From an uncultured Actinomycetota bacterium (GTDB lineage Bacteria > Actinomycetota > Actinomycetes > JAFAQI01): a stretch of 64,000 bases of DNA. A program made the position numbers and the translations under genes. The notes beneath the pieces were generated by a model. That model was not told where the DNA came from. It did not search any database and worked only from the letters and a program-made list of their open reading frames with translations. This document shows, one piece after another, positions 36,764-53,813 of this stretch (within the stretch, counting starts at the first letter, position 1; every line of letters begins with the position of its first letter). The stretch spans positions 992,001 to 1,056,000 of the forward strand of contig CAVYQE010000001.1 in the NCBI GenBank assembly GCA_963770565.1, written 5' to 3'.

Positions 36764-36777
36764 CGGGTCGACGCGCC

Positions 36778-37644
36778 TCAGCCGGTCACGGTCGAGATGA
36801 CCGGTCGGTCAGCAGAGTTGTGCACCCGGCCGGATCCGGCATAGATCACCATCGACGGACCTCGCAGGAAGCCGATCAGGGTCAGGCCGACCCGATCGGC
36901 CAGGTCGACGGCGAGTGCTGACGGAGCGGAAACCGCTGCCATTGCAGGGATACCGGCGACCGCTGCCTTCTGGGCGAGCTCGAACGATGCGCGGCCGGAC
37001 ACCAACAACAAGGTGGCGCGAAGCGGAAGTCGCCCCTCGCGCAATGCCCAGCCGACCACCTTGTCGACCGCGTTGTGCCGGCCGACGTCCTCGCGCAGGA
37101 CCAGCAGTTGCCCTGACGCGACGTCGAAGAGCGCGGCCGCATGCAAGCCGCCGGTCCGCTCGAAGACCTGCTGTGCCGCGCGCAGCTGATCGGGCAGGGT
37201 GGCGATCCACTCGGCGTCGAGGTTGGTCTCGTCGGCGCGCAGGTCGTACGGCGAGGTGACCTCTACGCCGTCGATCGTCGCCTTGCCGCACAGCCCGCAC
37301 GCACTGGTCGTCACCAACGCGCGTTGGAGCGACGTCGGCAGCTCGTCGATGTGCGTCGCGAGGTGGGCGTCCAGGACGTTATAGGTGTTGTGTCCCTCGT
37401 CGTCGACGCCCGCGCAGTAGCGCATCTCGCGGAGGTCTTCGCGATGCCGGATCACGCCTTCGCCGACCAGGAATCCGGCCAGCAGGTCCATGTCGTCGCC
37501 GGGCGTGCGCATCGTCACGGCGATCGCGCGGCCGCCGACCCGCATCTCGAGCGGTTCCTCGGCGACCAGTGTGTCCGGCGCGGTGACGGTCGGTTGGCCG
37601 ACGGTCACCCGTGACACCCGCCTGCTCACCGTTACCCGTCCCAC
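36778..37644 (-). CDS. fdhD: Formate dehydrogenase accessory sulfurtransferase
   Basis: EEPLE, MRTPG, CGLCG, TGGLHAA and REDVGRHNAVDK motifs. Confidence 0.93.
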   Translation of the reverse strand: MGRVTVSRRVSRVTVGQPTVTAPDTLVAEEPLEMRVGGRAIAVTMRTPGDDMDLLAGFLVGEGVIRHREDLREMRYCAGVDDEGHNTYNVLDAHLATHIDELPTSLQRALVTTSACGLCGKATIDGVEVTSPYDLRADETNLDAEWIATLPDQLRAAQQVFERTGGLHAAALFDVASGQLLVLREDVGRHNAVDKVVGWALREGRLPLRATLLLVSGRASFELAQKAAVAGIPAMAAVSAPSALAVDLADRVGLTLIGFLRGPSMVIYAGSGRVHNSADRPVISTVTG

Positions 37645-37698
37645 GCCCCAAGTGTGCCCCAGAGGCCGTTGGGTATGCCCGCCCGTCCGGCTCGTGGG

Positions 37699-38130
37699 CT
37701 AGCTGATCGGCTCGCAGACGACCACCGGGATCTCGCGATCGGTCTTGCGTTGGTAGCCGGCGTAGTTGGAGTGCGCCGAGGTGATCTGTGGCCACAGCTC
37801 GGCTCGCTCGTCAGAGTCGGCGATGTGGGCCCGCATCCTGCGGGTCGAACCCTCCATCGTGACCTCGACCTCGGGCGTCTTGCGCAGGTTCTGACACCAC
37901 GAAGGTTCGCGATCGTCGCCGCCGTTCGATGCGACCAGCATCACCTTGTCACCGAGCACCAGCGGCGAGGTCAGCATCGTCGGCCGAGGCTTGCCGCTGG
38001 TCCGACCGGTGGTGGTCAGCTGGAGTACCGGCATCCCCAACGCGCGACCACCGATCCGGCCTTTGCTGGCGTTGAACAGGCTCCGGTGCATGAGGGTGAC
38101 GCTGCGGGACAGCTCGTCTTTGACGTTCAT
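37699..38130 (-). CDS. Deazaflavin (F420)-dependent nitroreductase family protein
   Basis: LTTTGRTSGKPR, VASNGG...P.W..NL and YQRKTDREIPVV motifs. Confidence 0.9.
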   Translation of the reverse strand: MNVKDELSRSVTLMHRSLFNASKGRIGGRALGMPVLQLTTTGRTSGKPRPTMLTSPLVLGDKVMLVASNGGDDREPSWCQNLRKTPEVEVTMEGSTRRMRAHIADSDERAELWPQITSAHSNYAGYQRKTDREIPVVVCEPIS

Positions 38131-38236
38131 GGATCCATGATCGCGCACCGATTCGGCCGGTTGCCACTGGTGCGCGTTGTCCACGGGGACGGCGTTGGTT
38201 TCCGTTGTCCACAAAGGGCTTCTTCGTGCTGCCAGA

Positions 38237-38285
38237 TGTCGGCGGTCGGCAGTAGATTCTGTTTGGGAGTCGAACATACGTTCGA
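38237..38285 (+). promoter_or_regulatory. PafBC (RecA-NDp) type promoter plus LexA SOS box
   Basis: TGTCGG-N10-TAGATT at 38237-38258; TCGAACATACGTTCGA at 38270-38285. Confidence 0.75.
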
Positions 38286-38336
38286 TCAGCGGGCGCGTCG
38301 AGAGTCGCGTCCAAGTGCAGGGATGAGGTGAGGTCG

Positions 38337-39497
38337 ATGTCGGAGTTGCTCTCCGTGCTCGACTCCCTTGCCGTCGATGACGTGCACGCGATGGCGGAGC
38401 CGACGCTCCTTGCCCGGACCGAGACGCTGCTCGCCGCGCGCAACAAGCTCGACGCCGAGATCGCTCGCTCTCTGCAGGCGCTCGACGTGCGCGATGTGAC
38501 GGTGCACGAGTGCGGCCGCACGACCGGTTCGTGGCTGGTCGAGGAGCAGCGGCTCTCCCGGTTGGAGGCAACCCGCCGGATGGGCGTTGCGCGACTGCTG
38601 CCCTATCACCCGGAGCTGACTGCGGGCCTGGCGACCGGTGACGTGTCGCACGAGCACGCCCGGCTGATCCTGGATTGCCTGCGCCGGTTGCCGAGCGAGT
38701 GGGCGCGAGTGGCCGAGCCCGAGCTGATCGCTGCCGCGGCTGAGGTCGATCCCACCTCGCTCGGCCAGTTGTGCCGGGAGCTCCGACTGCGTTCGGGCGC
38801 CGATGAGGATGCCGAGGCCGTCGCCCAGCGGATGTTCCGCGATCGGTGGCTACGACTGTCGACGACCTTTCAGGGCATGGTGCATCTCGAGGGAATGTTG
38901 GATCCCGAGTCCGCTGCGATCGTGACCACGGCGATCACGCCGTTGCTCGCCACCGTCGGCGCTGAGGACCACCGCGACTCGGGTCAGCGTCGAGCCGATG
39001 CCCTCGTCGAGCTCGCCCGGATGGCGCTGGCGGGCGGCAAGCTGCCGGACCACGGCGGGGACCGTCCGCAGATTGTGGTGAGCATCCCGTGGGGGGAGCT
39101 GCGCGACGGCGTTTCGGCCGGGCAGCTGCCGTCCGCAACGCTGAATGGCACGCCGCTCACGCCGGCGATCGCCCGGCGGATCGCATGTGACGCGGGGTTC
39201 ATCCCGGCAGTGCTCGGCGGGCCGTCCGAGATCCTCGACCTCGGCCGTTCGCAGCGCAGTTTCAGCCGCGCACAACGCCGCGCCGCCGCCCTTCGCGACA
39301 AGGGCTGCGTGTTTCCGCAATGCAGGGTCGGCCTCGACCGCTGCCAGTTGCATCACCTGGACTTTTGGGAGTACGGCGGCAAGACGAATCTGCGCGACAG
39401 CGCTTACGTGTGCACGTTCCACCATTGGCTCGTCCACCACACCAGTTGGGTCATCATCCGCAACGCCCAGGGCCGGATCGAGGTCCGACGAACGTGA
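38337..39497 (+). CDS. DUF222 (13E12 family) HNH endonuclease-domain protein
   Basis: QRRADALVEL, RRIACDA, RDKGCVFPQC...HH...W..GG.T...CTFHH motifs. Confidence 0.9.
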   Translation: MSELLSVLDSLAVDDVHAMAEPTLLARTETLLAARNKLDAEIARSLQALDVRDVTVHECGRTTGSWLVEEQRLSRLEATRRMGVARLLPYHPELTAGLATGDVSHEHARLILDCLRRLPSEWARVAEPELIAAAAEVDPTSLGQLCRELRLRSGADEDAEAVAQRMFRDRWLRLSTTFQGMVHLEGMLDPESAAIVTTAITPLLATVGAEDHRDSGQRRADALVELARMALAGGKLPDHGGDRPQIVVSIPWGELRDGVSAGQLPSATLNGTPLTPAIARRIACDAGFIPAVLGGPSEILDLGRSQRSFSRAQRRAAALRDKGCVFPQCRVGLDRCQLHHLDFWEYGGKTNLRDSAYVCTFHHWLVHHTSWVIIRNAQGRIEVRRT

Positions 39498-39512
39498 TTC
39501 CTCGGTCGTGCG

Positions 39513-40673
39513 CTATTGCAGCTGTTCGAGCACGGAGCGACCCACTTCGGTCAAGGTCGCCTCCGGTGCGAGCGGGTGGGTGATGCCGGCGCGGACGTCG
39601 CGCAGCGCCTGCTCGTAGGGCTGGCGCCGGAAGTACGACATGCTGCCGAGCATCTCCATCGCGGTTTCGACCATGGCAATCGAGCTCAGCACGATCTGCC
39701 GCTTGGCCAGCATCGTGGCGCGAAAATGCACTTCGGTGAGGAGCGAGTCATCCGTCGTCCGGCGCAGCAGGCCTTCGAGGGCCCACCACGCCAGCCGCGA
39801 TTCCTGACTGAGCGCGCCGACGTGCCGATAGGTGATCGGGTCGTCGGGGTGCCGACCCTTGGTGACGTCGGTGAGCGCGCGTTCCCGGATGCCGTCGCCG
39901 GCGCCGAGATAGACCGCGGCGATCACCGTGAGCGCGATCAACAATCCGGGCGCCCGATGCGTGGTGCGATGCCGATCGGCGGGCTTGATCTCGCTCTCGA
40001 GTTCGTGCGTGCCGGTGATGTCGTCCTCGGGGACGAAGACGTCCTTGATCCCGATCCCGTTGCTCCCCGAGCCGCGCATGCCCATCGCATCCCAGGTATC
40101 GAGCACCTCGACGCCGGGTGCACTCATCGTGATCAGGACCGACGCAGCGACCGGCCCGCGCTGGTCGTCGATCAGGATCGGGGTCGCCAGGACGTCGGCG
40201 CCGGGGCAGCCGCTCGCCAGGCCCTTGCGACCGTTGAGTCGTAGCCCGCCGTCGACCCGGCTCGCGGTCACTCCGGGGTTGAGCGGGTCCGACGTACCGC
40301 TCGAGCACAGGATCAGGCCATCCGCGATCCGGCGTAGTGCGGACTCGACACCGGTATCGCCGCGGCGCCAGCGGCGCGCCATCGACAACACGGTGTGCTG
40401 GTGCATCGAGATTGCGAGGGAGGTATTCACGCACCCGGCGGCCATCGCGGCTTGGGCCCGGCACACGGTCGAGAGATCGTGGCCCCCGCCGCCGAGCTCC
40501 CGCGGAACGGCAACCGTGCCGTACCCGAGTTCGCGGATCGCCTCGTAGCCTTCCGCGACGAAGCTGGCTTCGCGATCGTGGTCGCCGGCGAACGGTTCGG
40601 CATGGCGGCCGATCTCGCGGGCGATCGCGATGACCTCGGACGGATCGAGCGACCCGTCGCCGGCGTCGGTCAT
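39513..40673 (-). CDS. Acyl-CoA dehydrogenase-fold flavoenzyme, probably monooxygenase-like (YdbM/DszC/KijD3 type)
   Basis: VPRELGGGG, LNGRK..ASG, WDAMGMRGSGS and C-terminal RDVRAGITHP motifs; ATGA-coupled to the DUF692 gene. Confidence 0.85.
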   Translation of the reverse strand: MTDAGDGSLDPSEVIAIAREIGRHAEPFAGDHDREASFVAEGYEAIRELGYGTVAVPRELGGGGHDLSTVCRAQAAMAAGCVNTSLAISMHQHTVLSMARRWRRGDTGVESALRRIADGLILCSSGTSDPLNPGVTASRVDGGLRLNGRKGLASGCPGADVLATPILIDDQRGPVAASVLITMSAPGVEVLDTWDAMGMRGSGSNGIGIKDVFVPEDDITGTHELESEIKPADRHRTTHRAPGLLIALTVIAAVYLGAGDGIRERALTDVTKGRHPDDPITYRHVGALSQESRLAWWALEGLLRRTTDDSLLTEVHFRATMLAKRQIVLSSIAMVETAMEMLGSMSYFRRQPYEQALRDVRAGITHPLAPEATLTEVGRSVLEQLQ

Positions 40674-41521
40674 GACCGCGGCGCCGTCAGCTCGCGGGTC
40701 GGGATCGGGTCGGCGGCGGCCAGGATGCTGCGCACCGTGGCAAGGTCGGCGCGGACCTGATCCGCCGCGCCCTCCCAGTCGGTGTCGCGTTCGATGAAGA
40801 TGATGTCGGGGTTGGCTCGCGTCAACACACGTTCGAGCAACCTGAACACCTCCTCGTGCACCGGGCGCGAGTGCGAGTCGATCCATTCCTCGCCATGCCG
40901 GGTCCCGCCGGCCAGGTGGATGTAGCGGATCCGCTCAGCGGGCAGGGAGTCGATGAATGCCTCGGCATCGAGCGGGCGGTTCTGCGAGTTGATCCAGATG
41001 TTGGTCAGGTCGAGCAGGCAGTCCCACTCCGGCGAGGCATCGAGAAGTTCGCGGTAGAACTCTTCCGGCGTGTACGTCGAGCCGCTGATCATCGTCGTGG
41101 TCGCGAGGTTCTCCAGTCGCACTCGTCGGCCGGTCGCCGCCGAGATCCGGGCGATGTTCGCGACGGCGCACTCGAGCAGCTCGTCGTCGAAGCGATTCGG
41201 CGCGAGGTGACCGAGCGCGTGGCCGCCGGCGGCGGTGAATGCCAGGTGGTCGCTGTAGGCAACTGCGCCGACCGCGTCGGCGAGCCGCGCGATCCGGCCG
41301 AGGTAAGCCTCGGTCGGTCCGCTCACCGAAGCGACGTTGCCGCAAAGCCCATGGATCGCGACCGGGATGCCGGCCACGCCGAGCTCACGCAACTCCCACG
41401 ATCGGCAGAAGCCGGAGTCGGCGAAATAACGGTCCGCGACGAGTTCCACCACGTCGACCGCGCAACCGTCCGGTCCGGAGTAGAGCTCCGGCAGCTCGGG
41501 TCGGTAGCCCGCCCCCACCAT
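40670..41521 (-). CDS. DUF692 family multinuclear non-heme iron oxidase (MNIO; MbnB/TglH/ChrH/HvfB family)
   Basis: G.GYRPEL, VELVADRY, HG, SDHL, LEN, LLDLTN, YIHLAGG, IDSH and IERD iron-ligand motifs; alternative GTG start at 41533. Confidence 0.92.
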   Translation of the reverse strand: MVGAGYRPELPELYSGPDGCAVDVVELVADRYFADSGFCRSWELRELGVAGIPVAIHGLCGNVASVSGPTEAYLGRIARLADAVGAVAYSDHLAFTAAGGHALGHLAPNRFDDELLECAVANIARISAATGRRVRLENLATTTMISGSTYTPEEFYRELLDASPEWDCLLDLTNIWINSQNRPLDAEAFIDSLPAERIRYIHLAGGTRHGEEWIDSHSRPVHEEVFRLLERVLTRANPDIIFIERDTDWEGAADQVRADLATVRSILAAADPIPTRELTAPRS

Positions 41522-41523
41522 CG

Positions 41524-42327
41524 TCAGGCCCACTCGAGAACCCCCTGGGAATGCAGTCGTGCCAGCGTAACGATCGTGCGCTCCGGTTGATCGATGTCAA
41601 TGCAAAGCTCAGCGGCGGATTGCGGGCCGTGTTCGCGGAGGCGGGTCAGCGCGGTCGCGGCGGCGGGGAACAGGCGCAGGATCTTCGGGTCGCGGCGCTG
41701 GCCATCTTGGAAGAACAGCAGATCGCACGGATCGGGCGGAAGGTCGCGTAGCTCGGTCAGGGTGAAGGAGCGAAGCTGACGCAGATCCCAGTCAAAATGC
41801 TGCACCTCGATGCTCGGGTGCAGCCGCAGCAGCCGACCGCGATCGAAGGTGTCTGGAGCCGCCTGCGGATTGCTCCGATCGGGTAGAAGTTCCAACGGTG
41901 CCGGCTGCCAGAAAGCCCGGCAGACGGCGAGCTCGAAGATCGCGAGTTCGGCGATCGCCGGGCCGCATTCGCTCGTCGGGGCCGAGTCGACCGCGAGCCG
42001 GACGAGTGCCGCGCCGAAGCCCAGCGGGTCGTCGGACAGCGCTTCGGTCTGCGGTGTGTCGGCGGCGTAGTCCGCCAGCAAAGCCTCCGCCGACGCTCCG
42101 AGCAGCACAAATGTGCGCGGAAGCGCGCGGCGCAGGATCCCCTGACGCTTGTTGACGAAGGAGGCGGTCAGTGCGGCGAGGTCCGGGACCATGGCGACGA
42201 ACGTGTCGAGGTCGGCGCCCGTCAAGCCGAGTCGGCCGGCATATGCCGGGGGATCGGCAAGGCATTCGGACCGGTCACGACGGCTCGTGATGACGGCCCC
42301 CATCGCCGATTCAAGATCGTGGCGCAC
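41524..42327 (-). CDS. Putative MNIO partner protein (DUF2063/HvfC-like with C-terminal winged-helix RRE-like end)
   Basis: L...LP.T..LLG, AELAIFELA, LRLHPS and terminal L..L...GVL pattern; directly upstream of DUF692. Confidence 0.7.
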   Translation of the reverse strand: MRHDLESAMGAVITSRRDRSECLADPPAYAGRLGLTGADLDTFVAMVPDLAALTASFVNKRQGILRRALPRTFVLLGASAEALLADYAADTPQTEALSDDPLGFGAALVRLAVDSAPTSECGPAIAELAIFELAVCRAFWQPAPLELLPDRSNPQAAPDTFDRGRLLRLHPSIEVQHFDWDLRQLRSFTLTELRDLPPDPCDLLFFQDGQRRDPKILRLFPAAATALTRLREHGPQSAAELCIDIDQPERTIVTLARLHSQGVLEWA

Positions 42328-42414
42328 CTAGCCATTGTGCCGGTCTGGCGTTACCGTGAGCGTGGAAGAGCCTTTGGGTTGGACGGTTGATCGGCTGTCC
42401 TGGGGGAGGCCAGT

Positions 42415-43293
42415 ATGGGCGAGCACGAACTTGCACAGGGTTACTTGCGTGGGGAGATCTCTCGTCGGACCATGATCCGGCGTCTCGTCGGTGGCGGTCT
42501 TTCGCTGGTCGCAGCGTCCGCCTTCGTCGACGAGCTGACGGCGGCGGATGCGGCACCGTCCGCGCACGGCGTGCCGTCGATCACCTCGATCACCCCGTCG
42601 TCGGGACCGCCGTCCGGCGGGACCAAGGTGGTCATCCGCGGCAAGCACTTCCTCGGTACGACGGCGGTGCACTTCGGCTCGCACAAGGCGAAGATCCATT
42701 CGGTGGCGTCGGCCTCGATCCACGTGACGTCGCCGAAGGGCTCGACCGGCTCGGTCGACATCACCGTCACGAACAGTCACGGCACGTCGAAGAAGAGCAA
42801 GCACCATCACTTCACCTACGTCCACAACCTCGCGCCGACGGTGACCAAGGTCGTGCCGGCCTCGGGTCCATCGGCCGGCGGCACCGCGGTAGTCGTTTCC
42901 GGGCGCAACCTCGGCAAGGCCTCGGCGGTTCACTTCGGATCTCGTCGCGGCACGATCACCAAGGTCGGCGCGACGTCGATCCACGTGAAGTCGCCGATCG
43001 GCTCCGGCGTGGTCGACGTCACTGTGACCACCTCGCACGGCACCTCCCACAAGCACGCGGCTGACCACTACCACTTCCTGGTTGCCCCGACACCGACACC
43101 GACGCCGACTCCCACTCCCACGCCGACGCCGACTCCCACTCCGACTCCGACTCCGACGCCGACGCCGACGCCCACGCCCACGCCCACCTCGGGGAGCAGT
43201 TGCAACTCCGGTTGCAGCACGAGTGGCAGTTGTAACTCCGGTTGCGGCGTCGGGTGCAACTCGAGCGGTTGCTTCCAGTGCGGTTCAGGTTGA
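42415..43293 (+). CDS. Tat-signal protein with two IPT/TIG domains, a (PT)17 stalk and a Cys-rich C-terminal tail; candidate MNIO substrate
   Basis: ISRRTMIRR..h-region..ADA; two P.IT.I.P.SGP..GGT.V.I.G..F/L IPT repeats; tail SGSSCNSGCSTSGSCNSGCGVGCNSSGCFQCGSG; GGGAGG RBS. Confidence 0.85.
   Translation: MGEHELAQGYLRGEISRRTMIRRLVGGGLSLVAASAFVDELTAADAAPSAHGVPSITSITPSSGPPSGGTKVVIRGKHFLGTTAVHFGSHKAKIHSVASASIHVTSPKGSTGSVDITVTNSHGTSKKSKHHHFTYVHNLAPTVTKVVPASGPSAGGTAVVVSGRNLGKASAVHFGSRRGTITKVGATSIHVKSPIGSGVVDVTVTTSHGTSHKHAADHYHFLVAPTPTPTPTPTPTPTPTPTPTPTPTPTPTPTPTPTSGSSCNSGCSTSGSCNSGCGVGCNSSGCFQCGSG
43087..43188 (+). repeat. Pro-Thr hexanucleotide coding repeat, (PT)17
   Basis: CCS-ACN units repeated 17 times. 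Confidence 0.9.
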
Positions 43294-43339
43294 GGATCCG
43301 GGTTCCGGAAGTGACGTCCGTCACTGGTGACGGGTTGCG

Positions 43340-44695
43340 GTGACCGAAGGCGGCACCGAGGCCCCTGAGGGGGACGCCGCCGGGCTGCGGTTGGACGAGC
43401 CGGTGGTCGTGCTGACCGGCTCGCGGCACGGTTCGACGTTGGTGCGCTTGATCCTCGACGCCCACCCCTCGCTGGCCTGTCCGGCCGAGACCAACATCCT
43501 CTCGCTGTCGGCGCGGTTGGCGCGGGCCGCCCGGCTACTCGCAAGTTCCGGCGATCCCGCCCTCGGCCCTCCGCTCGACATCGCCCGGGAGACGATCGAC
43601 GCGTTGTTTGCCGACCATCTGCGCCGGGTCGGCAAGCAACGCTGGTGCGACAAGTCGATCGACTCGTCGCGGAACGCCGCTGCGTTTCTCGAGTGGTATC
43701 CGAAGACGAAGTTCCTCTGCCTGTATCGGCACTGCCTCGACGTGATCGATTCAGGCATCGAGGTGACGCCCTGGGGGCTGTCGAGCTTCGGGTTCCGTCC
43801 GTACGGGCAGCGCCACCCGGGCAACGACGTCGCCGCGATCGCCGAGTACTGGTTGACGATGACGACCCGGACGCTCGAGTTCGAGCAGGCTCACCCCGAG
43901 GTCTGCCATCGGGTCTACTACGAGGACCTGGTCGGGGCGCCCGAGGACGTTGCCGCCGAGATCTTCGAGTTCCTCGGCGAGCCCGTCGTACCCGGCATCA
44001 CCGCGACCTGCTTCACCACGGTGGGTGCTCCGGTCGGGCCGGGCGATCCGAAGGTGTGGGCGACGTCGGCCATCTCGGCCAGGTCGATCGGGCGCGGCGC
44101 CCGGGTGCCGCTCGAGCTCATTCCGGTCACCCTTCGCGACCCGGTGTCCGAGCTGCTGGTCGAGCTGGGGTATCCCAAGCTGGGCGACCGGTACGACCAG
44201 GTCGGCCGAGCGCCTTCGAACGGCGCCGCCCCGGCCACTCCAGGCGACGACATCGACCAGCGAATCGGGGCGCACCTGCGCGAAGCCCTCTCGATGCTTC
44301 CCCCGATCAGTGGTTCATGGCGGGCCGCGCTCGACGGCAAGCCGGTGGCGATCGTGGGATCGCCCTGGCCGGATGCGTCGTCGCATTGGCGGGTCGACCT
44401 GGCCGGGCGGAGCTGCGTGCGCTCGAGCGGTGATCCGCTGGACGGCACCGCGTGGGCGGTCCTCGCCGAACCTGACGCGCTGATCGACGTGATGAACGGT
44501 CGGCTCAACCTAGCGATCGCCATGCGGCGGGGCCTGATCCGGATCGAGCGCGACCATTCGACTGCGCTGTCGACGGACGTCAGCCAGCTGGTGCCGCTGG
44601 CCAGGGTCGGGCGCGACGATGTCGTCCGGCTGCAGGTCACCGCGCGGCTGCTCGGCGCCCCGTCGGCCGATCCGGACGAATCATGGGAGCAGTGA
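43340..44695 (+). CDS. Sulfotransferase (TPST/Sulfotransfer_3-like) with C-terminal SCP2-like extension
   Basis: 5'-PSB loop GSRHGSTLVRLILDAHP, WCDKS, 3'-PB YRHCLDVIDS and YEDLV.APE motifs. Confidence 0.85.
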   Translation: MTEGGTEAPEGDAAGLRLDEPVVVLTGSRHGSTLVRLILDAHPSLACPAETNILSLSARLARAARLLASSGDPALGPPLDIARETIDALFADHLRRVGKQRWCDKSIDSSRNAAAFLEWYPKTKFLCLYRHCLDVIDSGIEVTPWGLSSFGFRPYGQRHPGNDVAAIAEYWLTMTTRTLEFEQAHPEVCHRVYYEDLVGAPEDVAAEIFEFLGEPVVPGITATCFTTVGAPVGPGDPKVWATSAISARSIGRGARVPLELIPVTLRDPVSELLVELGYPKLGDRYDQVGRAPSNGAAPATPGDDIDQRIGAHLREALSMLPPISGSWRAALDGKPVAIVGSPWPDASSHWRVDLAGRSCVRSSGDPLDGTAWAVLAEPDALIDVMNGRLNLAIAMRRGLIRIERDHSTALSTDVSQLVPLARVGRDDVVRLQVTARLLGAPSADPDESWEQ

Positions 44696-45780
44696 TGTCT
44701 CCGCAGCCCGAGGACGCGCTGCCCCACGAGAAAGCGCCGCCTCACGAGGAAGCGCTGCCCCACGACGAGCCGGCCGAAGACGAGGTCAGCCCGGAGTGGT
44801 GCCACTGGGCGGCCGTGTCGCTGCTCTCGGGAATGCCCCTGGCCGAGGTGATCTCGACGATGGCCGCGCAGGGCGTGCCCGAGCCGGATGCCGCGCGGGT
44901 GTGCGCGGCGGCGTTCATGGATCCGATGTTCGAGGCCGCGCAGACAATTGCACAGCAACACCGCAAGCTCGTCTCGGTGCTGGCGATGCGATCGACGATG
45001 CTGGACCTGGCCGAGAACGGGCGCGCGATCGAGCGCCGGTCCGGACTGAGCCGCAAGGAGTTCCTCGACGACTACTACGCCCGCAACCGGCCGGTCGTCC
45101 TCGAGGACGTCTGTGACACCTGGCCGGCGGTCGCGCAGTGGACCCCTGAGTACCTGGCCGAGGTGATCGGCTCCGCCGAGGTCGAGGTGATGTCCGACCG
45201 CGATGCCGACGACGACTACGAGATCAACGCGGACGCGCACAAGCAGTACATGCCCTTCGACGACTATGTTGCCCGGGTCCTCGCCGCTCAGTCGACGAAC
45301 GATCTCTATCTGGTGGCGAACAACCACCTGTTGGAGTCCGGCGTGGCCGAGCCGCTCTGGCGAGACATCGCGCTCGACGAGCGATACCTGGATCGCGGCG
45401 ATGCCGCGAGCCGGACCTACCTGTGGTTCGGCGCGGGTGGCACGATCACCAAGCTCCACCACGACGTGATGAACGTGATGTTCCACCAGGTCATGGGCTG
45501 GAAGCAGTTCACCTTGATCTCGCCGCTGGAGACCCCGCACCTCTATAACAACGCGTCGGTCTACAGCGATGTCGACCCGAAGTCGCCCGACTACACCCGG
45601 TTCCCGGCGTACGCGAATGCGCACCCGATCCATGTCACGGTCGGCCCGGGTGAGGCCTTGTTCGTGCCGGTCGGGTGGTGGCACCACGTCGAGGCGCTCG
45701 AGATGAGCATCAGCGTCTCGTCCACGAGCTTCGCCTTCCCGAACTCGATCGAGTGGTTCCATCCGGAGCGGCTGGGCTGA
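44695..45780 (+). CDS. JmjC/Cupin_8 Fe(II)/2-oxoglutarate hydroxylase
   Basis: NRPVVL, WPA..W, WFG..GT.T.LHHD, GWKQF and PVGWWHHVEAL (HxD...H) motifs; TGATG overlap with the sulfotransferase. Confidence 0.9.
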   Translation: MSPQPEDALPHEKAPPHEEALPHDEPAEDEVSPEWCHWAAVSLLSGMPLAEVISTMAAQGVPEPDAARVCAAAFMDPMFEAAQTIAQQHRKLVSVLAMRSTMLDLAENGRAIERRSGLSRKEFLDDYYARNRPVVLEDVCDTWPAVAQWTPEYLAEVIGSAEVEVMSDRDADDDYEINADAHKQYMPFDDYVARVLAAQSTNDLYLVANNHLLESGVAEPLWRDIALDERYLDRGDAASRTYLWFGAGGTITKLHHDVMNVMFHQVMGWKQFTLISPLETPHLYNNASVYSDVDPKSPDYTRFPAYANAHPIHVTVGPGEALFVPVGWWHHVEALEMSISVSSTSFAFPNSIEWFHPERLG

Positions 45781-45816
45781 GCCTCGCGGTCCGGTCGGCG
45801 GCGATACCTTCAGGAC

Positions 45817-47043
45817 ATGACCGAGACCTCGGTGACGTTCCAGCCGTTCAGCGCGGCGTTCACCGATGACCCGTATCCGCACTACGCGGAGCTCCGGGCC
45901 CAGGTGCCGGTGGAGCAGCATGCGCTCGGCTTCTGGGCGCTGTGGCGGCATGCGGACGTGACCGAGGTGCTGCGGGCCCGGCTGTCGGTCGAGGAGGGCA
46001 ATGTCACCAGCTTCGGGCCGATGCGAGCGGTGTACGACGAGATCTACCGGGAGGCCAACACCGGCCGGCGCGGCGAGGGCATGTCGATGCTCGACCGCGA
46101 TCCGCCGGACCACACCCGGCTTCGCCGGCTCGTGTCGCGCGCGTTCACGCCACGCCGGATCGAGACCCTCATCCCGGTCGTCCAGTCCCTCGTCGACGAC
46201 GCGCTGGACCGGATCGCCGACGCCGGCGAAGTCGACCTCATCGAGGCGCTGGCGTTTCCCCTGCCGTTCGCGGTGATCTCGACGATGCTCGGGATGCCGG
46301 AGACCGATGTCACGCGGTTGCGCGAGCTGTCTCACCTGATCGTCAAGTCGCTCGAACCGGTGCCGGACGAGCAGACCATCCGCGAGATCATCCTGGCCGA
46401 CAAGGAGATGGCCGACCGTACCGCCGAGGCGATCGAGTGGAAGCGCGATCATCCCGCCGACGACCTGCTGACCGCGCTGATCAACGCCGAAGACGGCGGT
46501 GATGTGCTCAGCGACGAGGAGCTGATCGGTCAGGTGGTGCTGCTCTACGTCGCGGGTCACGAGACGACGGTCAACCTGATCGGCAATGGCACGCTGGCGC
46601 TGCTCAACGACCCCGCGCAGGCCGCGCTCTGGCGGGAGCGACCCGATCTCGACGACAACGCGGTCGAGGAGCTGCTGCGCTACGACAGTCCGGTGCAGCT
46701 GACCCGGCGGATCACCCTCGAGGACTACGAGGTCGACGGCCACGTCATCCCGAAGGGGAGTTTCGTCATGGCCAGCCTCGGCTCGGCCAACCGCGACGGG
46801 GCGCAGTTCGGGCCGGACGCCGACCGGGTCAGGCTCGATCGCGCGAACGCGAAGCAGCATGCGTCGTTCGGCGGCGGCGTCCACCACTGTCTCGGCGCCG
46901 CGCTGGCCCGGACCGAGGGCCGGATCGCGCTGTCGTCGCTGGTCCGCCGGTTCCCGTCGCTCGCCCTCGCCGGCGAGCCGGCCCGCAACGGGCGGATCAA
47001 CCTGCGCGGCCTCACCGCGCTCCCGGTCAGCGTCGAGTCATGA
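45817..47043 (+). CDS. Cytochrome P450
   Basis: DPPDHTRLR, AGHETT, EELLR and FGGGVHHCLG motifs. Confidence 0.95.
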   Translation: MTETSVTFQPFSAAFTDDPYPHYAELRAQVPVEQHALGFWALWRHADVTEVLRARLSVEEGNVTSFGPMRAVYDEIYREANTGRRGEGMSMLDRDPPDHTRLRRLVSRAFTPRRIETLIPVVQSLVDDALDRIADAGEVDLIEALAFPLPFAVISTMLGMPETDVTRLRELSHLIVKSLEPVPDEQTIREIILADKEMADRTAEAIEWKRDHPADDLLTALINAEDGGDVLSDEELIGQVVLLYVAGHETTVNLIGNGTLALLNDPAQAALWRERPDLDDNAVEELLRYDSPVQLTRRITLEDYEVDGHVIPKGSFVMASLGSANRDGAQFGPDADRVRLDRANAKQHASFGGGVHHCLGAALARTEGRIALSSLVRRFPSLALAGEPARNGRINLRGLTALPVSVES

Positions 47044-47597
47044 CCACCGAGTCGCTGAAGGGCAAACTGCTCATCGCCGCGCCGGGGATGCAGGAGCCGA
47101 CCTTTTCGCGCACCGTGATCAGCGTGCTCGAGCACACCGACGACGGCGCACTGGGTGTCGTGATCAACCGCCCCGGTGACGCCTCGCTGATCGACATCGT
47201 GCCGCCGGTGGCTGAGCTCGCGAGCGAGCCGGCGGTGCTGTTCGCCGGCGGCCCGGTCGAACCGCAAGCCGCGATCGCCCTCGGTTTCGTCACCGGGACC
47301 GCAGCCGGCGACGCCTGCCGGCCGGTCGTTCCGCCATTGGTGACGGTGGACCTGGACTCCGATCCGGCCATCCTTGCCGCCTCGCTCCGAGAGCTCCGCG
47401 TCTTCTCCGGGTACGCCGGTTGGTCGGCCGGCCAGCTCGAGGGCGAGATCGCGGTCGGCGCCTGGTATGTCGTCGAGGCGTTGCCGCTCGACGCGTTCGA
47501 CGCGGAGCCGGGCCGGCTGTGGGCGGCGGTCCTTCGCCGGCAGCCGTGGCCGTTGTGTGCGGTCGCGACCTGTCCCATCGATCCGACCATGAACTGA
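47040..47597 (+). CDS. YqgE/AlgH (DUF179) family protein
   Basis: GKLLIA, F.RTVI, GVVINRP, GGPV and GYAGW..GQL motifs. Confidence 0.92.
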   Translation: MTTESLKGKLLIAAPGMQEPTFSRTVISVLEHTDDGALGVVINRPGDASLIDIVPPVAELASEPAVLFAGGPVEPQAAIALGFVTGTAAGDACRPVVPPLVTVDLDSDPAILAASLRELRVFSGYAGWSAGQLEGEIAVGAWYVVEALPLDAFDAEPGRLWAAVLRRQPWPLCAVATCPIDPTMN

Positions 47598-47609
47598 GAG
47601 GCACCTGCG

Positions 47610-48524
47610 GTGGTTGCGCCGAGCGGCGAGCAGTTCGAGATCACGTCCGGTGAGCAGCGCGCGACCGTGGTCGAGGTCGGCGGCGGTCTCCGTACCTACA
47701 CGGTCGGTGACCGCGCGGTCCTCGACGGGTACGACGAGGCCGCGACCTGCGACGGAGCGCGCTGCCAGACCCTCGTGCCGTGGCCGAACCGCGTGCATGA
47801 CGGGAAGTGGAACTGGCGCGGCGCGGACTTGCAGCTCGCGCTGACCGAACCCGAGCAGCACAACGCGATTCACGGCCTGGTGCGTTGGATGCCATGGTCG
47901 GTGATCGAGCGCGCTGCCTCGTCGATCACGGTCGGCTGCACCTCACATCCGCAACCGGGCTATCCGTGGACGATCGAGGTTCGCAACGCGTGGTCGCTCG
48001 GCGCGGACGGTGTTGCGGTCGAAACCACGATCGTCAACCGCAGCGAGTCGATCGCACCGGTCGCTGCCGGGTTTCATCCTTACGTGCGGGTCGGAACCTC
48101 GACGATCGACGACGCCGTGCTGACCGTGCCCGGCGACACCCGGATCCTGACCGGCGAGCAGCAGATCCCGACCGGCCGCGAGCCGGTTGCCGGCACGGCA
48201 TACGACTTCCGGTCACCGCGCCGGATCGGCGACCTCGCGATCGACCACACCTATACCGACCTGCACCGCGACGACGACGGCCTAGCTCGCCTTCGGCTGG
48301 CCGCACCCGACCGAAGCGAGCAAGTGACGGTCTGGGTCGACGGGGCGTACCCGTACCTCGAGCTGTTCACCGGTGACGCGCTTCCAGATCCATCGCGCCG
48401 ACGCCAGGGGCTGGGAGTGGAGCCGATGTCGGTCCCGCCGAACGCGCTGGTCACTGGCGAGTCGGTGGTCGCACTCGAGCCAGGCGGGTCTTGGCGGGGA
48501 CATTGGGGAATCAACCCCTTCTAA
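47610..48524 (+). CDS. Aldose 1-epimerase family protein
   Basis: PWPNRV, NAIHGL, GFHPY and EPMS motifs. Confidence 0.9.
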   Translation: MVAPSGEQFEITSGEQRATVVEVGGGLRTYTVGDRAVLDGYDEAATCDGARCQTLVPWPNRVHDGKWNWRGADLQLALTEPEQHNAIHGLVRWMPWSVIERAASSITVGCTSHPQPGYPWTIEVRNAWSLGADGVAVETTIVNRSESIAPVAAGFHPYVRVGTSTIDDAVLTVPGDTRILTGEQQIPTGREPVAGTAYDFRSPRRIGDLAIDHTYTDLHRDDDGLARLRLAAPDRSEQVTVWVDGAYPYLELFTGDALPDPSRRRQGLGVEPMSVPPNALVTGESVVALEPGGSWRGHWGINPF

Positions 48525-48590
48525 CCTCGCGACCTTCACATCCGGAGTGGGACCGGAAGACTGGGCAGCAATCGCCGTACGATACGGCGC

Positions 48591-48974
48591 GTGCGCGATG
48601 AGGTTCGGCTGCCGCCACACCCCGCAAGCGTCGGGCGGGCGCGCCGTTTCGTCGTCGACCGGCTGGCCGAACTCGGAGTTGCCGATCCCGCCGCCAATGC
48701 CGCGCTGATCGTCAGCGAACTCGTGACGAACGCCGTGATGCACGCCGGTACGACGATCACCGTGCGCGTCACCGCGGCGGGTGCCGGGGCGCGGGTGGAG
48801 GTCGTGGACGGCAGCCAGGTGCTCCCCGGACTGCGGGTGGTGTCGGTCGGGTCAGGCTCGGGACGCGGGATGTCCCTGGTCGCGCATTTCGCCAGCCAGT
48901 GGGGGGCCGAACGCACCGCCGTCGGCAAGGTCGTCTGGTTCGTCATCGGTGCGGCCGCCGAGGCGACCGGCTAG
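48591..48974 (+). CDS. Anti-sigma-factor-like ATP-binding protein (HATPase_c_2)
   Basis: ARRFV, VSELVTNAV.HA, GRGM.LV and GKVVW motifs. Confidence 0.85.
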   Translation: MRDEVRLPPHPASVGRARRFVVDRLAELGVADPAANAALIVSELVTNAVMHAGTTITVRVTAAGAGARVEVVDGSQVLPGLRVVSVGSGSGRGMSLVAHFASQWGAERTAVGKVVWFVIGAAAEATG

Positions 48975-48984
48975 ACAGTAGGTC

Positions 48985-50625
48985 GTGGTCTTCGATCGGC
49001 TGAGCACCCTCGCGTCCGATGCGGCGAGTGCGGGCTGGGCGACGGCCAAGGTCGCGGCCCGGGTGGGAATCGGCCCACCGCTTCGCCCGGACCGGTTGTT
49101 CGGGGTGGCGCAGGCCCTACGGCACTGGGGCATGACCCCGGCTGCGGTCTGTGCCGCCAACGCGGTCCGGGACCCCGATCGGCCCGCGGTGATCGACGAC
49201 CGGGAGTCGCTCGGCTGGGCCGAGCTCGACCGACGGAGCAGCATCGTCGCGGCCGCTCTTGCCGAGCAGGGCGTCGGCGTCGGTGCCGCGGTCGGGTTGC
49301 TGGCCCGCAACTCGGCCGACTTCGTCGTCGCCCAGATCGCGGTCAGCAAGCTCGGTGCCGACCTGCTGTACCTGAACACCGGCTTTGCCGGACCGCAGCT
49401 CGCCGATGTCCTGGACCACCAGAACGCGGCCGCCGTCATCGCCGACGACGAGTTCGAGCCGTTGCTCGAGGAGTTCGCGGGCTCGATGCCGCGCCTGACC
49501 GCGTGGGTCCAGGACGGCAGCGCGCCGGCGGGAAGCATCGCCGCCCTCGTGCTGGCCGCCGCGGGCACCGCGACGCCCAACCTGCCGGCACCAGGACAGG
49601 ACGGGCGCCACGTCATCCTGACCAGCGGCACGACCGGGCGGCCGAAAGGGGCGCCGCGCGGTGCGCCCAACCCGCTGGCCGGCGTGATCGCCGCAGTGGC
49701 GCTCCTCGACGCGATTCCCTACCGGGCCAGGCGCACGACGGTGCTCGCCGCCCCGGCGTTCCATGCCTGGGGGCTCGGCAACCTGATCATGGCGTCGTTG
49801 TTGCAGTCGACCGTGGTGATGACGCGACGGTTCGACCCGGTTACAACCCTGGAGCTCGTCGACCGGCACGACGCGCACACGTTGGTCGCCGTACCGGTGA
49901 TGTGCGAGCGGCTGCTCGAGGTCGACCCGCCCGCAGTCGCGCCGTCGCTGCAGGTGGTCGCGGTCTCGGGTTCGGCACTGCCACCGACTCTGGCGACCCG
50001 GTTCATGGATCGGTTCGGTGACGTGCTCTACAACCTGTACGGCTCGACCGAGGTTGCGTTCGTCAGCGTGGCCGGGCCGGCAGACCTGCGCGCCGCGCCG
50101 ACCAGCGCCGGGCGGGTGCTGCGCGGCGTGCACGTGCGGCTGGTCGACCCGGACGGCCACGAGGTCGGCGCCGGCGAGATCGGCCGGGTGTTCGCCGGCA
50201 GTGGCCTGTCGATCGACGGATACACCGGCGATGACGACAAGCCGCGCCTCGACGGGCTCACCGCGACCGGTGACCTCGGGCGGTTCGGCGATGACGGCCG
50301 GCTCTATCTCGAGGGTCGGGACGACGACATGATCATCACCGGCGGGGAGAACGTCGTGCCGGCCGAGATCGAGACCAGCCTTCATCGCCACCCCGACGTT
50401 GCCGAGGTCGCGGTCGTCGGGGTTCCCGACGAGCGGTTCGGCCAGGCCGTGGTCGCGCACGTGGTGCTCCGCCCTGGCGGCTCGGCAACCGAGAGCGATC
50501 TGCGCGCGCACGTGAAGGCGCGGCTCGCGACGTACAAGGTGCCGCGGAACGTGGTCTTTCGCGACCGGATGCCGCGCAACGAGACCGGCAAGATCGTCAA
50601 GAGCGAGCTGAACGACCTGACTTAG
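48985..50625 (+). CDS. AMP-binding acyl-CoA synthetase (FadD2/FadD12-like)
   Basis: LTSGTTGRPKG, YGSTE, TGDLG, GRDDDMI and GKI motifs. Confidence 0.9.
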   Translation: MVFDRLSTLASDAASAGWATAKVAARVGIGPPLRPDRLFGVAQALRHWGMTPAAVCAANAVRDPDRPAVIDDRESLGWAELDRRSSIVAAALAEQGVGVGAAVGLLARNSADFVVAQIAVSKLGADLLYLNTGFAGPQLADVLDHQNAAAVIADDEFEPLLEEFAGSMPRLTAWVQDGSAPAGSIAALVLAAAGTATPNLPAPGQDGRHVILTSGTTGRPKGAPRGAPNPLAGVIAAVALLDAIPYRARRTTVLAAPAFHAWGLGNLIMASLLQSTVVMTRRFDPVTTLELVDRHDAHTLVAVPVMCERLLEVDPPAVAPSLQVVAVSGSALPPTLATRFMDRFGDVLYNLYGSTEVAFVSVAGPADLRAAPTSAGRVLRGVHVRLVDPDGHEVGAGEIGRVFAGSGLSIDGYTGDDDKPRLDGLTATGDLGRFGDDGRLYLEGRDDDMIITGGENVVPAEIETSLHRHPDVAEVAVVGVPDERFGQAVVAHVVLRPGGSATESDLRAHVKARLATYKVPRNVVFRDRMPRNETGKIVKSELNDLT

Positions 50626-51194
50626 CGGTGGACCTCGCCGACCAGCGTGACGCCCGCTGCGCTCATCTCGGCAAGTGCGGCCTGAACAGTGTCCGGCGCG
50701 ACCCCGGCGGTGAGGTCGAGCAGGACGGTGGGCGCGAAGCCCTCGCGAGCCGCGTCGATCGCGGTGGCCCGGACGCAGTGGTCCGTCGCGAGCCCGACGA
50801 TGTCGACCCGGTCGACGTCGCGCTCGCGCAGCCAGTCGGCCAGCGTGCTGCCTTCGCCATTGGTGCCCTCGAATCCGCTGTACGCCGCTTCCCACTCGCC
50901 CTTGTCGAACACCGCGTCGAGTCGTTGGGTGTCGAGGTTCGGGTGGAGCTCCGCACCCGCGGTGCCGATCTTGCAGTGCGCCGGCCATGAGTCGACATAG
51001 TCGGGCGTGGATGAGAAGTGCCCGTCCGGGTCGCGGTGCGCGTCGCGGGTCGCGGCGACGACCGGATAGTCGGCCGTGGCGAGCAGCGCACTGATGCCGG
51101 CCGCCACCGCGGCGCCGCCGGGGACCGCGAGCGAGCCACCCTCGCAGAAGTCGTTCTGGACGTCGACGACGAGCAGCGCCTTGACCACGCTCAC
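50622..51194 (-). CDS. pncA: Nicotinamidase/pyrazinamidase
   Basis: VDVQNDFCEGGSL, HFS..PDY..SWP.HC and GLATDHCV motifs. Confidence 0.93.
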   Translation of the reverse strand: MSVVKALLVVDVQNDFCEGGSLAVPGGAAVAAGISALLATADYPVVAATRDAHRDPDGHFSSTPDYVDSWPAHCKIGTAGAELHPNLDTQRLDAVFDKGEWEAAYSGFEGTNGEGSTLADWLRERDVDRVDIVGLATDHCVRATAIDAAREGFAPTVLLDLTAGVAPDTVQAALAEMSAAGVTLVGEVHR

Positions 51195-52483
51195 GCCTCC
51201 ACGATCACGGTCTCGATCGCCGGCTCGCCCGCGGACAGCTTCATCGCGTGGGCCGGCAGCTCCGCGACCGAAGCCGCGCATCGCTTGCGGGCGGCGTCGA
51301 GGCCGGCGTCGGCCACGACTTCACCTTCACGCATCGCCGGCACCTGCAGGTCGCGCTCGTCGTCGCGGCGTGACGGGGCGACCTCGGCCCGGATGAGCTC
51401 GGCGATCGCGGTGCCGGCCTGATCGAGTCGGCGGGAGGCGAGCTTGCGGCCGCCGATCGTGGCCTTGCCGAGCGAGCGCTTGGCGACCGGCTGCCAGGTC
51501 CCGTCGTCGGCTTGCCGGGCGACCAGCTTGTAGACGAAGCCAGCGGTCGGGGAGCCGCTGCCGGTCACCAGCGAGGTGCCGACGCCGTACCCGTCGACCG
51601 GGGCGGAGGCCAACCCGGCGATTGCGAACTCGTCGAGGTCGCCGGTGACGACGATCCGGGTCTGCGTGGCGCCGAGCTCGTCCAGCAGCGTCCGGGCGTC
51701 GCGCGCCTGGGTCAGCAGGTCGCCGGAGTCCAGCCGGATCGCGCCGAGCGATGTCCCGGCGACCTCGACCGCGGTGCGAATCCCCTTGCTCACGTCGTAG
51801 GTATCGACGAGCAGGGTGGTGCCGCGGCCGAGTGCGTCGACCTGCGCCTGGAAAGCGGTGCGCTCGTCGCCGTGAATCATCGTGAACGCGTGCGCGGCGG
51901 TGCCGGCGGTCGGGATCGCCCAGCGCTGTCCGGCCGCGAGGTTGGAGCTGGCCGCGAAGCCACCGATATAGGCGGCCCGCGCCGCGGCCACCGCGGCCTG
52001 CTCATGGGTGCGTCGCGACCCCATTTCGATGCACGGCCGGCCGCTCGCCGCGTTCACCATCCGGGCGGCCGCAGTGGCCACCGCGCTGTCATGGTTGAGG
52101 ACCGAGAGCACGAGGGTCTCGAGCAGGACGCATTCGGCGAAGCTGCCCTCCACCATGAGCACCGGCGAGCCCGGGAAGTAGACCTCGCCCTCGGCGTAGC
52201 TGTCGATCGAGCCGGTGAACCGGTAGTCGGCGAGCCAGGTGCGAGTGGCGTGGTCGATGACCTCGTGGGTGGTGAGGAAGTCAAGCGCCTCGTCGTCGAA
52301 ACGGAAGCGGGTGAGCTCATCGAGCAGGCGGCCGAGACCGGCCACGACGGCGTAGCGGCGACGGCCCGGCAGCGACCGGGCGAACACCTCGAAGGCGCAC
52401 CGGCGGTCTGCCTCGCCGCTGCGCAGCGCCGCGTCCACCATCGTCAATTCGTAGTGGTCGGTCAGCAGGGCTGGTGTGCTCAC
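51191..52483 (-). CDS. pncB: Nicotinate phosphoribosyltransferase
   Basis: [26 protein letters not shown] and RLDSGDL motifs. Confidence 0.95.
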
Positions 52484-53472: not shown

Positions 53473-53520
53473 CGAGGTTGTTCCCTTCCGCCGAGGTCCT
53501 CGCGATGCGACCATTGGGGC

Positions 53521-53811: not shown

Positions 53812-53813
53812 GG

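Follow-up and report, generated by a model that had tools for sequence, protein, structure and literature searches.

The 64,000-nucleotide stretch analysed here (the window; positions 992,001 to 1,056,000 of contig CAVYQE010000001.1, GenBank assembly GCA_963770565.1, from an uncultured Actinomycetota bacterium) encodes a sulfotransferase (ST) and a JmjC-type 2-oxoglutarate (2OG) oxygenase in overlapping genes. Directly upstream lies the gene of a candidate substrate with a twin-arginine translocation (Tat)-like leader, a Pro-Thr (PT) repeat linker and a Cys-rich tail. Both enzymes are part of a six-gene island that also holds an oxidative enzyme dependent on multinuclear non-heme iron (MNIO, DUF692). 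Comparative genomics suggests, with what we regard as an even chance of being correct, that the JmjC enzyme would hydroxylate the neighbouring exported protein and that the ST would cap a hydroxyl before export, the pair acting as tailoring enzymes of the island. The PT linker appears a likelier site for the two enzymes than the Asn residues of the tail.

The six genes (flavoprotein, MNIO enzyme, MNIO partner, precursor, ST and JmjC enzyme) occupy 39499-45778, from directly after the stop codon of a DUF222/HNH gene to the JmjC stop codon. G003, a genome from the same genus, runs colinear with the window on either side, at 89% identity on the left (31284-39498 against 1-8253 of its contig C19, blastn) and 91% on the right (45779-56000 against C19 8298-18502, blastn), and a junction alignment places 44 bp where the window has these 6.28 kb. 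Because the block is missing from G003 as a whole, the ST and JmjC genes travel with the MNIO genes as one unit, which speaks for grouping them with the Cys-tail protein as well as the MNIO genes. The original prediction had coupled the two enzymes to each other and to the MNIO genes, and this part of it stands, given the single block here and the recurrent adjacency and fusion of STs and JmjC homologues described below. The gene arrangement was also as described: the ST gene (43340-44695, plus strand, 451 residues) begins with a GTG start 46 nt past the stop codon of the precursor gene (42415-43293, plus strand) and overlaps the JmjC gene (44695-45780, plus strand, 361 residues) in the sequence TGATG at 44693-44697, with TGA at 44693-44695 and ATG at 44695-44697. 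An in-frame ATG at 44683 is an alternative JmjC start (365 residues). Both reading frames are intact.

The ST (catalytic domain at residues ~21-216) matches Pfam Sulfotransfer_3 (PF13469) with 80.5 bits at a cut-off of 27. Residues R29, G31, S32, E50, K105, R130 and S138 are invariant in the family; R29/G31/S32 and R130/S138 make up the 5'-PSB and 3'-PB motifs for binding of 3'-phosphoadenosine-5'-phosphosulfate (PAPS), E50 aligns with the 'EET' and K105 with the 'NK' of TPST. The best Protein Data Bank (PDB) sequence match is the CurM ST (E 3.3e-9), with TPST at 5e-9. Foldseek places TPST1/2 at the top for the AlphaFold model of the ST (predicted local distance difference test, pLDDT, 82.7) with an E-value of 2e-10, and the CurM and olefin-synthase STs are also among the top matches. 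As judged from the model, the ST is TPST-like by fold. The earlier TPST-like assignment thus holds at the level of the fold, but the exact ST family is not kept, as sister clusters carry Stf0-type enzymes. Residues ~300-445 form an alpha/beta domain in the model (block pLDDT mostly 70-92), and this C-terminal domain is homologous throughout, aligning across the whole family. As to its SCP2 likeness, another earlier claim, 13 of 42 aligned relatives match SCP2 (PF02036, best E 6.4e-9), and the window ST itself gave no match at E<=1.

The JmjC enzyme matches Pfam Cupin_8 (PF13621) with 160.3 bits at a cut-off of 27.4. Across 41 sequences H255, D257, H330 and K270 do not vary, and their surroundings align with JMJD5, H255/D257 with LHQD, H330 with WHYV and K270 with GRK; K270 is presumably the basic residue that binds 2OG. 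The model (pLDDT 89.9) has the double-stranded beta-helix fold of the JmjC type with the iron triad, preceded by a conserved four-helix N-terminal domain at residues ~33-104. Its top Foldseek match is human JMJD5 (E 4.7e-21, target-normalised TM 0.85, rmsd 2.4 A, 30% identity), followed by TYW5, JMJD7 and FIH, the last with a TM of about 0.53. Sequence comparison gives the same ranking, with an E-value of 7e-32 for JMJD5 against about 1e-18 for FIH. Both the sequence and the predicted fold thus put human JMJD5, and not FIH, as the closest characterised relative. JMJD5 is an arginyl C-3 hydroxylase.

Homologues of the JmjC enzyme are numerous: 458 reach E<=1e-3, and identities of 50-63% are frequent among them. 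A metagenome scan retained 80 JmjC loci (0.67 Mb), which were compared with 78 control loci (1.35 Mb) retained from a profile scan of species-representative genomes for the ST family, mostly Streptosporangiaceae metagenome-assembled genomes. Neighbours were counted by tblastn at E<=1e-5 with Pfam checks. An ST of any kind lies near the JmjC homologue in 30 of the 80 loci, the Stf0 type (PF09037) in 21/80, a third type with a weak PF13469 match in 8/80 and the window type in 1/80. An EryCIII-like GT1 glycosyltransferase is found near JmjC in 17/80 loci and a class I methyltransferase in 11/80. With the same queries, no control locus had an Stf0-type or third-type ST, the glycosyltransferase or the methyltransferase. 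The recurrent partners of JmjC are all hydroxyl-acting transferases, as would be expected if the oxygenase supplied the hydroxyl for them to cap. Between the three ST types there is no similarity (BLASTP best E 0.022 for the window ST against Stf0, 0.47 for the other comparison); among JmjC loci the window type is seen only in the window and one near-identical contig, and in the sister clusters L093, L094, L096/L175 and L102 an Stf0 enzyme fills its place beside JmjC. Fusions occur in addition to adjacency: ST domains are present in 11 of the 38 JmjC homologues longer than 632 residues, ten of these domains being Stf0, and the homologue P0158 joins Sulfotransfer_3 and Cupin_8 in one chain. Among the same 38 are two aldo-keto-reductase fusions (P0172, P0173) and two proteins with methyltransferase and APH-kinase domains (P0205, P0207).

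A PT-run open reading frame accompanies JmjC in 23 of the 80 loci, usually directly upstream of the JmjC gene or its ST, as against none of the 78 control loci. The encoded proteins differ in all else: TIG domains and a Cys tail are found in the window, L094 and L096; a Tat-like leader with PT repeat and Cys tail and no TIG domain in L099, L102 and L104; a leader with a Pro-rich protein and no Cys in L124/L126, where no MNIO gene lies within 9 kb upstream; PPPG repeats at the end in L108/L110 and L127; and a peptidase-PT-membrane-anchor arrangement in L119, L143, L149 and L151. The PT repeat is thus the only feature common to the JmjC-adjacent proteins, and several of them, for example those of L124 and L108, have neither a Cys tail nor an MNIO gene nearby. 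The set of MNIO, partner and flavoprotein genes was found near JmjC in 3/80 loci (L096, L099 and L104; L175 shares the L096 arrangement), and MNIO is absent from the ST-bearing loci L098/L100, L124/L126 and L157, with about 5-10 kb on each side. None of the 78 loci of the window-type ST family has a homologue of JmjC, MNIO, the partner or the TIG precursor within 10 kb (tblastn E<=1e-5). The JmjC-ST pairing therefore tracks PT-repeat proteins rather than MNIO. The original prediction had asked whether the pair recurs in other MNIO clusters and had named its occurrence mostly without MNIO genes as evidence to the contrary; it is this latter outcome that was found.

Only two others among 400 genomes sampled from the class have a JmjC homologue, each 55% identical. 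The first, from the same family (G017), encodes the partner, MNIO, flavoprotein, JmjC and Stf0 in that order, and after them a TIG-(PT)n-(CGG)n protein. The second is G003, whose JmjC gene stands in a nonribosomal peptide synthetase (NRPS) context with methyltransferase, glycosyltransferase and Stf0 genes.

The history of the pairing was approached with an IQ-TREE phylogeny of 74 JmjC rows, which has a midpoint root only. For L097, L099, L100 and L110 a stop codon within the matched part, and for L114, L145 and L169 their length, led to exclusion. A 19-row clade with support 100/100 contains both the window and L091. A nested 16-row clade (97/87) holds the window and has L096, with MNIO and Stf0, as its first branch; all other ST-bearing rows of this clade carry Stf0, which suggests ST replacement around a constant JmjC. 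The rows linked to MNIO, namely the window, L096 and L104, do not group together within it. On the simplest reading of the tree, the pairing of JmjC with Stf0 would be the older one, and the window lineage would have swapped Stf0 for the TPST-like enzyme with its SCP2-like domain.

The candidate substrate has 292 residues and comprises the Tat-like leader, two IPT/TIG domains (PF01833, two stretches), a (PT)17 linker and the tail. An alignment of eight precursors from the clade of the window shows a conserved N-terminal twin-Arg leader (42415-42564, plus strand) with the consensus MxExELxxGYLxGxISRRTLIxxLVxxG...AF and nine invariant columns, Tat-like by the motif as read by eye. In its own genome a profile of this leader finds this gene alone with a strong score (E 2.7e-25, the next at 0.0037). 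The linker (43087-43188, plus strand) contains 17 Thr. The Cys/Ser/Gly tail of 34 residues (43189-43290, plus strand), SGSSCNSGCSTSGSCNSGCGVGCNSSGCFQCGSG, is the presumed MNIO target and has seven Cys, 11 Ser and one Thr; the count also confirmed the three CNS motifs and the lack of Tyr noted earlier. The Tyr residues of the precursor are residue 10 in the leader and residues 135 and 219 in what by eye is the TIG-domain region; neither tail nor linker offers a Tyr acceptor in an acidic unstructured peptide as in TPST substrates.

Several observations on related precursors stand beside these. The tails of L093, L094, L097 and L102 read (CAS)n(CGS)n(CGG)n and continue in a basic extension with a shared S-P-L-R; this Arg-rich extension was considered as an Arg target of the JMJD5 kind and rejected, being absent from the window tail. 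The precursors of L099 (9461-10027) and L104 (5721-6290), devoid of TIG domains, have a possible lipobox (ALAAC) after the twin-Arg leader and a conserved C-terminal extension (..RPSWMP..) past the Cys-rich core.

From these observations we infer the order of the reactions, the substrate and the modified residue as follows. In the cytoplasm the JMJD5-like enzyme, with Fe(II), 2OG and O2, would hydroxylate a side chain of the precursor, possibly docking on the conserved N-terminal leader, and the PAPS-dependent ST would O-sulfate the new hydroxyl or a Ser/Thr. The MNIO, partner and flavoprotein trio would separately rewrite the tail cysteines, and the finished protein would then be exported via Tat. 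Two modules appear to act on one substrate, the MNIO trio going with the Cys-rich tail and JmjC with its transferase or kinase partners going with PT repeats. Since the enzymes lack signal peptides and use cytoplasmic cofactors while the substrate has a twin-Arg leader, modification before Tat export would be coherent. An APS-kinase domain is encoded elsewhere in the same genome, so that PAPS is plausibly available. Complex prediction for JmjC with the leader lends the docking weak support: the ipSAE was 0.46 against 0.00 for the best control, three runs shared 100% of contacts, and the pLDDT of the partner was at least 84. Of 157 solved complexes 116 pass the mark applied, as do 2 of 215 mismatches; at an ipSAE of at most 0.60, only 18 of the 157 solved complexes pass it, together with both passing mismatches.

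A number of points weigh against this proposal. At the height of the complex score just given, a pass is wrong more often than right, except for a pairing that was likely from the outset. We know of no JmjC enzyme that hydroxylates Pro or Thr. In two of the four MNIO-linked cluster types (L099 and L104) JmjC occurs without an ST, with 1.6 and 10 kb of downstream sequence, so that sulfation would be dispensable there. Sister JmjC genes in L098/L100 and G003 stand with NRPS, short-chain dehydrogenase/reductase, methyltransferase, glycosyltransferase and Stf0 genes and no PT protein, and the enzymes of these loci may act on a small molecule. The position of the window ST outside the peptide-linked clade of its family, described next, makes its acceptor unreadable from relatives. 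Many metagenome contigs are 1.3-5 kb long, which leaves the absences and raw counts soft, and the counts include duplicate loci (L098/100, L106/107, L108/110, L124/126 and L129/130). The whole case is a comparative-genomic one.

The relatives of the ST bear on whether the two enzymes share a pathway step. Among 60 related genomes no orthologue of the window ST was found, only paralogues about 30% identical (including weak matches in G051 and G060). A protein search returned 51 matches, one of them 90% identical and 44 (P0002-P0045) at 36-51%. Scanning genome contigs with the single sequence gave no relative; the alignment-based scan succeeded and is the source of the 78 loci. Crude GC3-filtered open reading frame calls within about 4 kb give as recurrent neighbours an ABC exporter (43 loci), a redoxin (15) and MauE/DoxX (15), and tblastn finds a cytochrome P450 near 4/78. 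In 20 of the 78 loci there are small peptides, 25 in all, that combine a conserved leader (..ERVASLLP..) with a Cys-rich core; they lie at a median of 188 bp from the ST, and 23 of the 25 have Tyr in the core. A FastTree phylogeny of 62 family STs and the window ST (16 loci were dropped, having no ST open reading frame past the filter) places all peptide-linked loci in one 25-row clade and the window ST elsewhere, on a long branch. By these genomic associations the family includes peptide-associated members. For the subgroup of the window ST itself (L013, L015, L020, L032, L042, L064), an attempt to infer the acceptor was abandoned, no consistent neighbourhood being seen.

The peptide-linked loci (L014, L016-L019, L021-L026, L029, L030, L033-L038, L051, L082) are of interest in their own right. 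Each encodes one to three peptides, in most about 0-400 bp from the ST, with the leader ..L(A/L)ERV(A/E)SLLP.. and a core usually of eight Cys with Tyr; these loci, of Streptosporangiaceae type, also have genes for an ABC exporter, for MauE/DoxX and for a redoxin, to which some add an S26 peptidase. The set resembles a so far uncharacterised family of ribosomal peptides that would be sulfated and rich in disulfides. In the accessible text of the decRiPPter study (PMC7794033), MauE/MauD-associated candidate families of peptides made by the ribosome and modified after translation (RiPPs) in Streptomyces are described and are not tied to an ST.

This 25-row clade, beside Cys-rich peptides and without a nearby hydroxylase in 20/78 loci, raises the alternative that the two enzymes act independently, the ST sulfating existing Ser/Thr (or Tyr) of the tail or linker and JmjC hydroxylating elsewhere or modifying the leader. 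The 11 Ser and one Thr of the tail and the 17 Thr of the linker could serve as acceptors, and JmjC does occur without an ST in L099 and L104. The ST-JmjC fusions and the exchange of ST types beside a constant JmjC argue instead for a shared pathway step, and we consider independent action unlikely, though of appreciable probability.

Another alternative takes the pair to act on a small molecule or lipid, with the SCP2-like domain binding a hydrophobic acceptor and the adjacency to the precursor being incidental. The CurM enzyme, the best PDB sequence match of the ST, presumably sulfates an aliphatic hydroxyl on an acyl carrier protein (ACP) and not a phenol; SCP2 domains bind lipids, Stf0 of M. 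tuberculosis is a sugar ST, and related JmjC genes occur in NRPS contexts (L098/L100, L176). Among these, L098 also encodes a JmjC-aldo-keto reductase fusion (3838-5826) in its NRPS-containing locus, a locus that occurs in G003 too. The island itself, however, contains no small-molecule biosynthetic gene and nothing resembling a polyketide synthase (PKS) among its six genes, and the enrichment of PT proteins beside JmjC (23/80 against 0/78) speaks for a protein substrate. A small-molecule or lipid acceptor is on balance improbable.

The target named in the original prediction did not survive comparison. It held that an FIH-like JmjC enzyme beta-hydroxylates the Asn of the three CNS motifs and that the ST then O-sulfates the hydroxy-Asn. 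FIH does belong to the same JmjC clade and is matched at about E 1e-18, and the tails of the window, L091, L099 and L104 do have Asn in their Cys-rich core, in the last two beside Cys. In five of nine related tails, however (L093, L094, L096, L097 and L102), the Cys-rich core has no Asn, which makes beta-hydroxy-Asn sulfation unlikely. The near-identical strain L091 has the same ST-JmjC pair (JmjC 93% and ST 90% identical) and a tail that reads ...SGSGCHSGCSTSGCSTSGCNISGCFTSGCGSGVRN, with CHS/CST where the window has CNS and a single such CN motif left. JMJD5 outranks FIH by both sequence and fold, and JmjC homologues also adjoin PT proteins without any Cys tail. Together these findings leave the Asn reading very improbable.

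Scarcely more than a bare chance is given to the use of sulfate as a leaving group, in which elimination after O-sulfation of a newly made hydroxyl or of Ser/Thr would yield a dehydro residue attacked by Cys to form thioether cross-links in the tail: the ST resembles the CurM and olefin-synthase STs, which we take to activate a hydroxyl for elimination, and Ser alternates with Cys in the tail, but the island has no cyclase or lyase gene, tails of the L096 type consist almost wholly of Cys and Gly and lack Ser/Thr in the core, and JmjC adjoins PT proteins without Cys.

The proposal that JmjC and ST tailor the neighbouring exported protein can be widened, although the wider form is a tentative one that we put well short of an even chance. 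A widespread and as yet uncharacterised bacterial JMJD5-like family would hydroxylate residues in the PT linkers of exported proteins, and interchangeable sulfo-, glycosyl-, methyl- or phosphotransferases would cap them in the cytoplasm before Tat export; here this would be joined with MNIO rewriting of a Cys tail, the conserved n-region of the signal peptide doubling as recognition leader for the enzymes. If true, such capping of PT linkers would give bacteria their own equivalent of hydroxyproline-rich or mucin-like decoration. JmjC side-chain hydroxylation in bacteria is known mainly for ribosomal proteins, and to our knowledge bacterial O-sulfation of ribosomal products is known only on Tyr (RaxX and sulfonated lanthipeptides). 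Should the pair act as suggested, a single substrate gene with its unique leader and the two enzymes would make a small testable system for studying how proteins are hydroxylated and then O-sulfated at an aliphatic position. A large JmjC family, many of whose 458 homologues are fused to STs, would thereby gain a function as well. The composition of the island further suggests that the reach of MNIO clusters extends to multi-module substrates of protein size with a second, independent modification module.

The remaining genes of the region complete the map. The island is laid out as two divergent gene sets, flavoprotein, MNIO and partner on the minus strand and precursor, ST and JmjC on the plus strand. 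The flavoprotein has an acyl-CoA-dehydrogenase fold (ACAD; 39513-40886, minus strand; SfnB/DszC-like; Pfam Acyl-CoA_dh_N/M/2); its NCBIfam scores are far under the cut-offs, and its true start probably lies downstream of that of the longest open reading frame. The MNIO enzyme (40670-41533, minus strand) matches PF05114 with 185 bits, and its top NCBIfam match, MNIO_BufB, scores 148 bits, under the cut-off of 310. The partner of 267 residues (41524-42327, minus strand) had no family match in Pfam or NCBIfam. In L096, L099, L104 and L175, ACAD homologues 46-58% identical adjoin MNIO and partner homologues 33-35% identical stand beside it, that of L096 with a weak NGO1945_C match (E 0.0029). MNIO and flavoprotein form one open frame in L099 (6282-8390, 702 residues) and L104 (2422-4473, 683 residues), an argument for joint action of flavoprotein and MNIO; the corresponding open reading frames of the window overlap in different frames.

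No promoter- or terminator-like sites were found in 39000-47200, and a suspected attenuator hairpin between precursor and ST was rejected, folding no better than shuffles (z -0.12). To the left of the island, the DUF222/HNH gene (38328-39497) ends 1-2 nt before its edge; it is also present in G003 and hence lies outside the indel. The DUF222/HNH-endonuclease type is, we assume, often tied to mobile DNA. To the right, the P450 gene (45817-47043, plus strand) and an AlgH-like gene (47040-47597, plus strand) overlap by 4 nt. Because G003 has the P450 but no island, the P450 was rejected as a cluster member; it and the AlgH-like gene are resident flank genes. In L175, the partner gene is preceded, ~5 kb upstream, by a P450 about 30% identical. 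Farther afield, CysNC- and CysD-like genes, recognised by eye, are found in L126 (15134-17458), ~8 kb from a JmjC-glycosyltransferase-Stf0 set, echoing the PAPS-synthetase linkage in the accessible text of Iyer et al. 2010 (PMC2938197).

The closest known counterparts of the ST are TPST1/2, RaxST with its substrate RaxX, and SslST (PMC11143521, from the text available), which have PF13469 in common with it and whose RiPP-type members likewise stand beside a ribosomally made substrate. In those systems sulfation is on Tyr, as the accessible parts of the reports on sulfonated lanthipeptides (PMC11143521) and RaxX (bioRxiv 10.1101/442517) describe, whereas the tail in the window has no Tyr, the ST has an added SCP2-like domain and it is paired with a hydroxylase. 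The CurM and olefin-synthase STs, near in sequence and fold, differ in context, being PKS domains that work on acyl-ACP. The Stf0 family fills the place of the window ST in sister clusters and is fused to JmjC in 10 of the 38 longer homologues, but it has no likeness to the window ST in sequence and lacks the SCP2-like domain. JMJD5, TYW5, JMJD7 and FIH have the Cupin_8-clade fold and HxD...H triad in common with the JmjC enzyme; unlike JMJD5, the latter is bacterial, has the extra four-helix domain, faces a linker and tail without a conserved Arg, and belongs to a family linked to sulfo-, glycosyl- and methyltransferases.

On the MNIO side, the bufferin/oxazolin-type systems and the Actinomycetota TIGR04222 proteins, the latter with Cys/Ser/Gly-rich C-termini in the accessible text of PMC12452194, likewise combine MNIO, a partner and an exported protein-sized precursor with a Cys-rich unstructured C-terminus as its probable target. 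The precursor in the window adds IPT/TIG domains, a PT linker and a Tat-like leader, and the cluster adds the ACAD flavoprotein, JmjC and ST. The words sulfotransferase, cupin, acyl-CoA dehydrogenase and P450 have no occurrence in the main text of that MNIO survey, and in the literature searched no paper was found that joins MNIO and an ST. A multinuclear non-heme iron enzyme, a cupin and a RiPP do come together in the biphenomycin work, as far as its available text goes.

The nearest precedent for the pair as such is the work of Iyer et al. 2010 (PMC2938197), beyond which no literature was found on a JMJD5-type bacterial hydroxylase with an ST. In its accessible text, bacterial beta-hydroxylase or PhyH-type dioxygenases and STs are proposed to act in turn, by hydroxylation and then sulfation, on co-encoded collagen-like or tail-collar proteins, FIH1-ST fusions are reported in Monosiga, and JMJD5 is listed in bacteria; no mention of PT proteins, MNIO/DUF692 or the present neighbourhood was found in that text. 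The logic is the same, a dioxygenase and an ST co-encoded with a secreted low-complexity protein, and ST-JmjC fusions occur in both. The operons of that study differ in having beta-hydroxylase or PhyH-type enzymes with Gly-rich or collagen-like substrates, whereas here a JMJD5-like JmjC enzyme goes with PT-repeat proteins that have a Tat-like leader and sometimes with an MNIO module. The hydroxylase-ST logic had thus already been predicted, and the combination of a JMJD5-like JmjC enzyme, a PT protein with a Tat-like leader and an MNIO module is a new variant of it.

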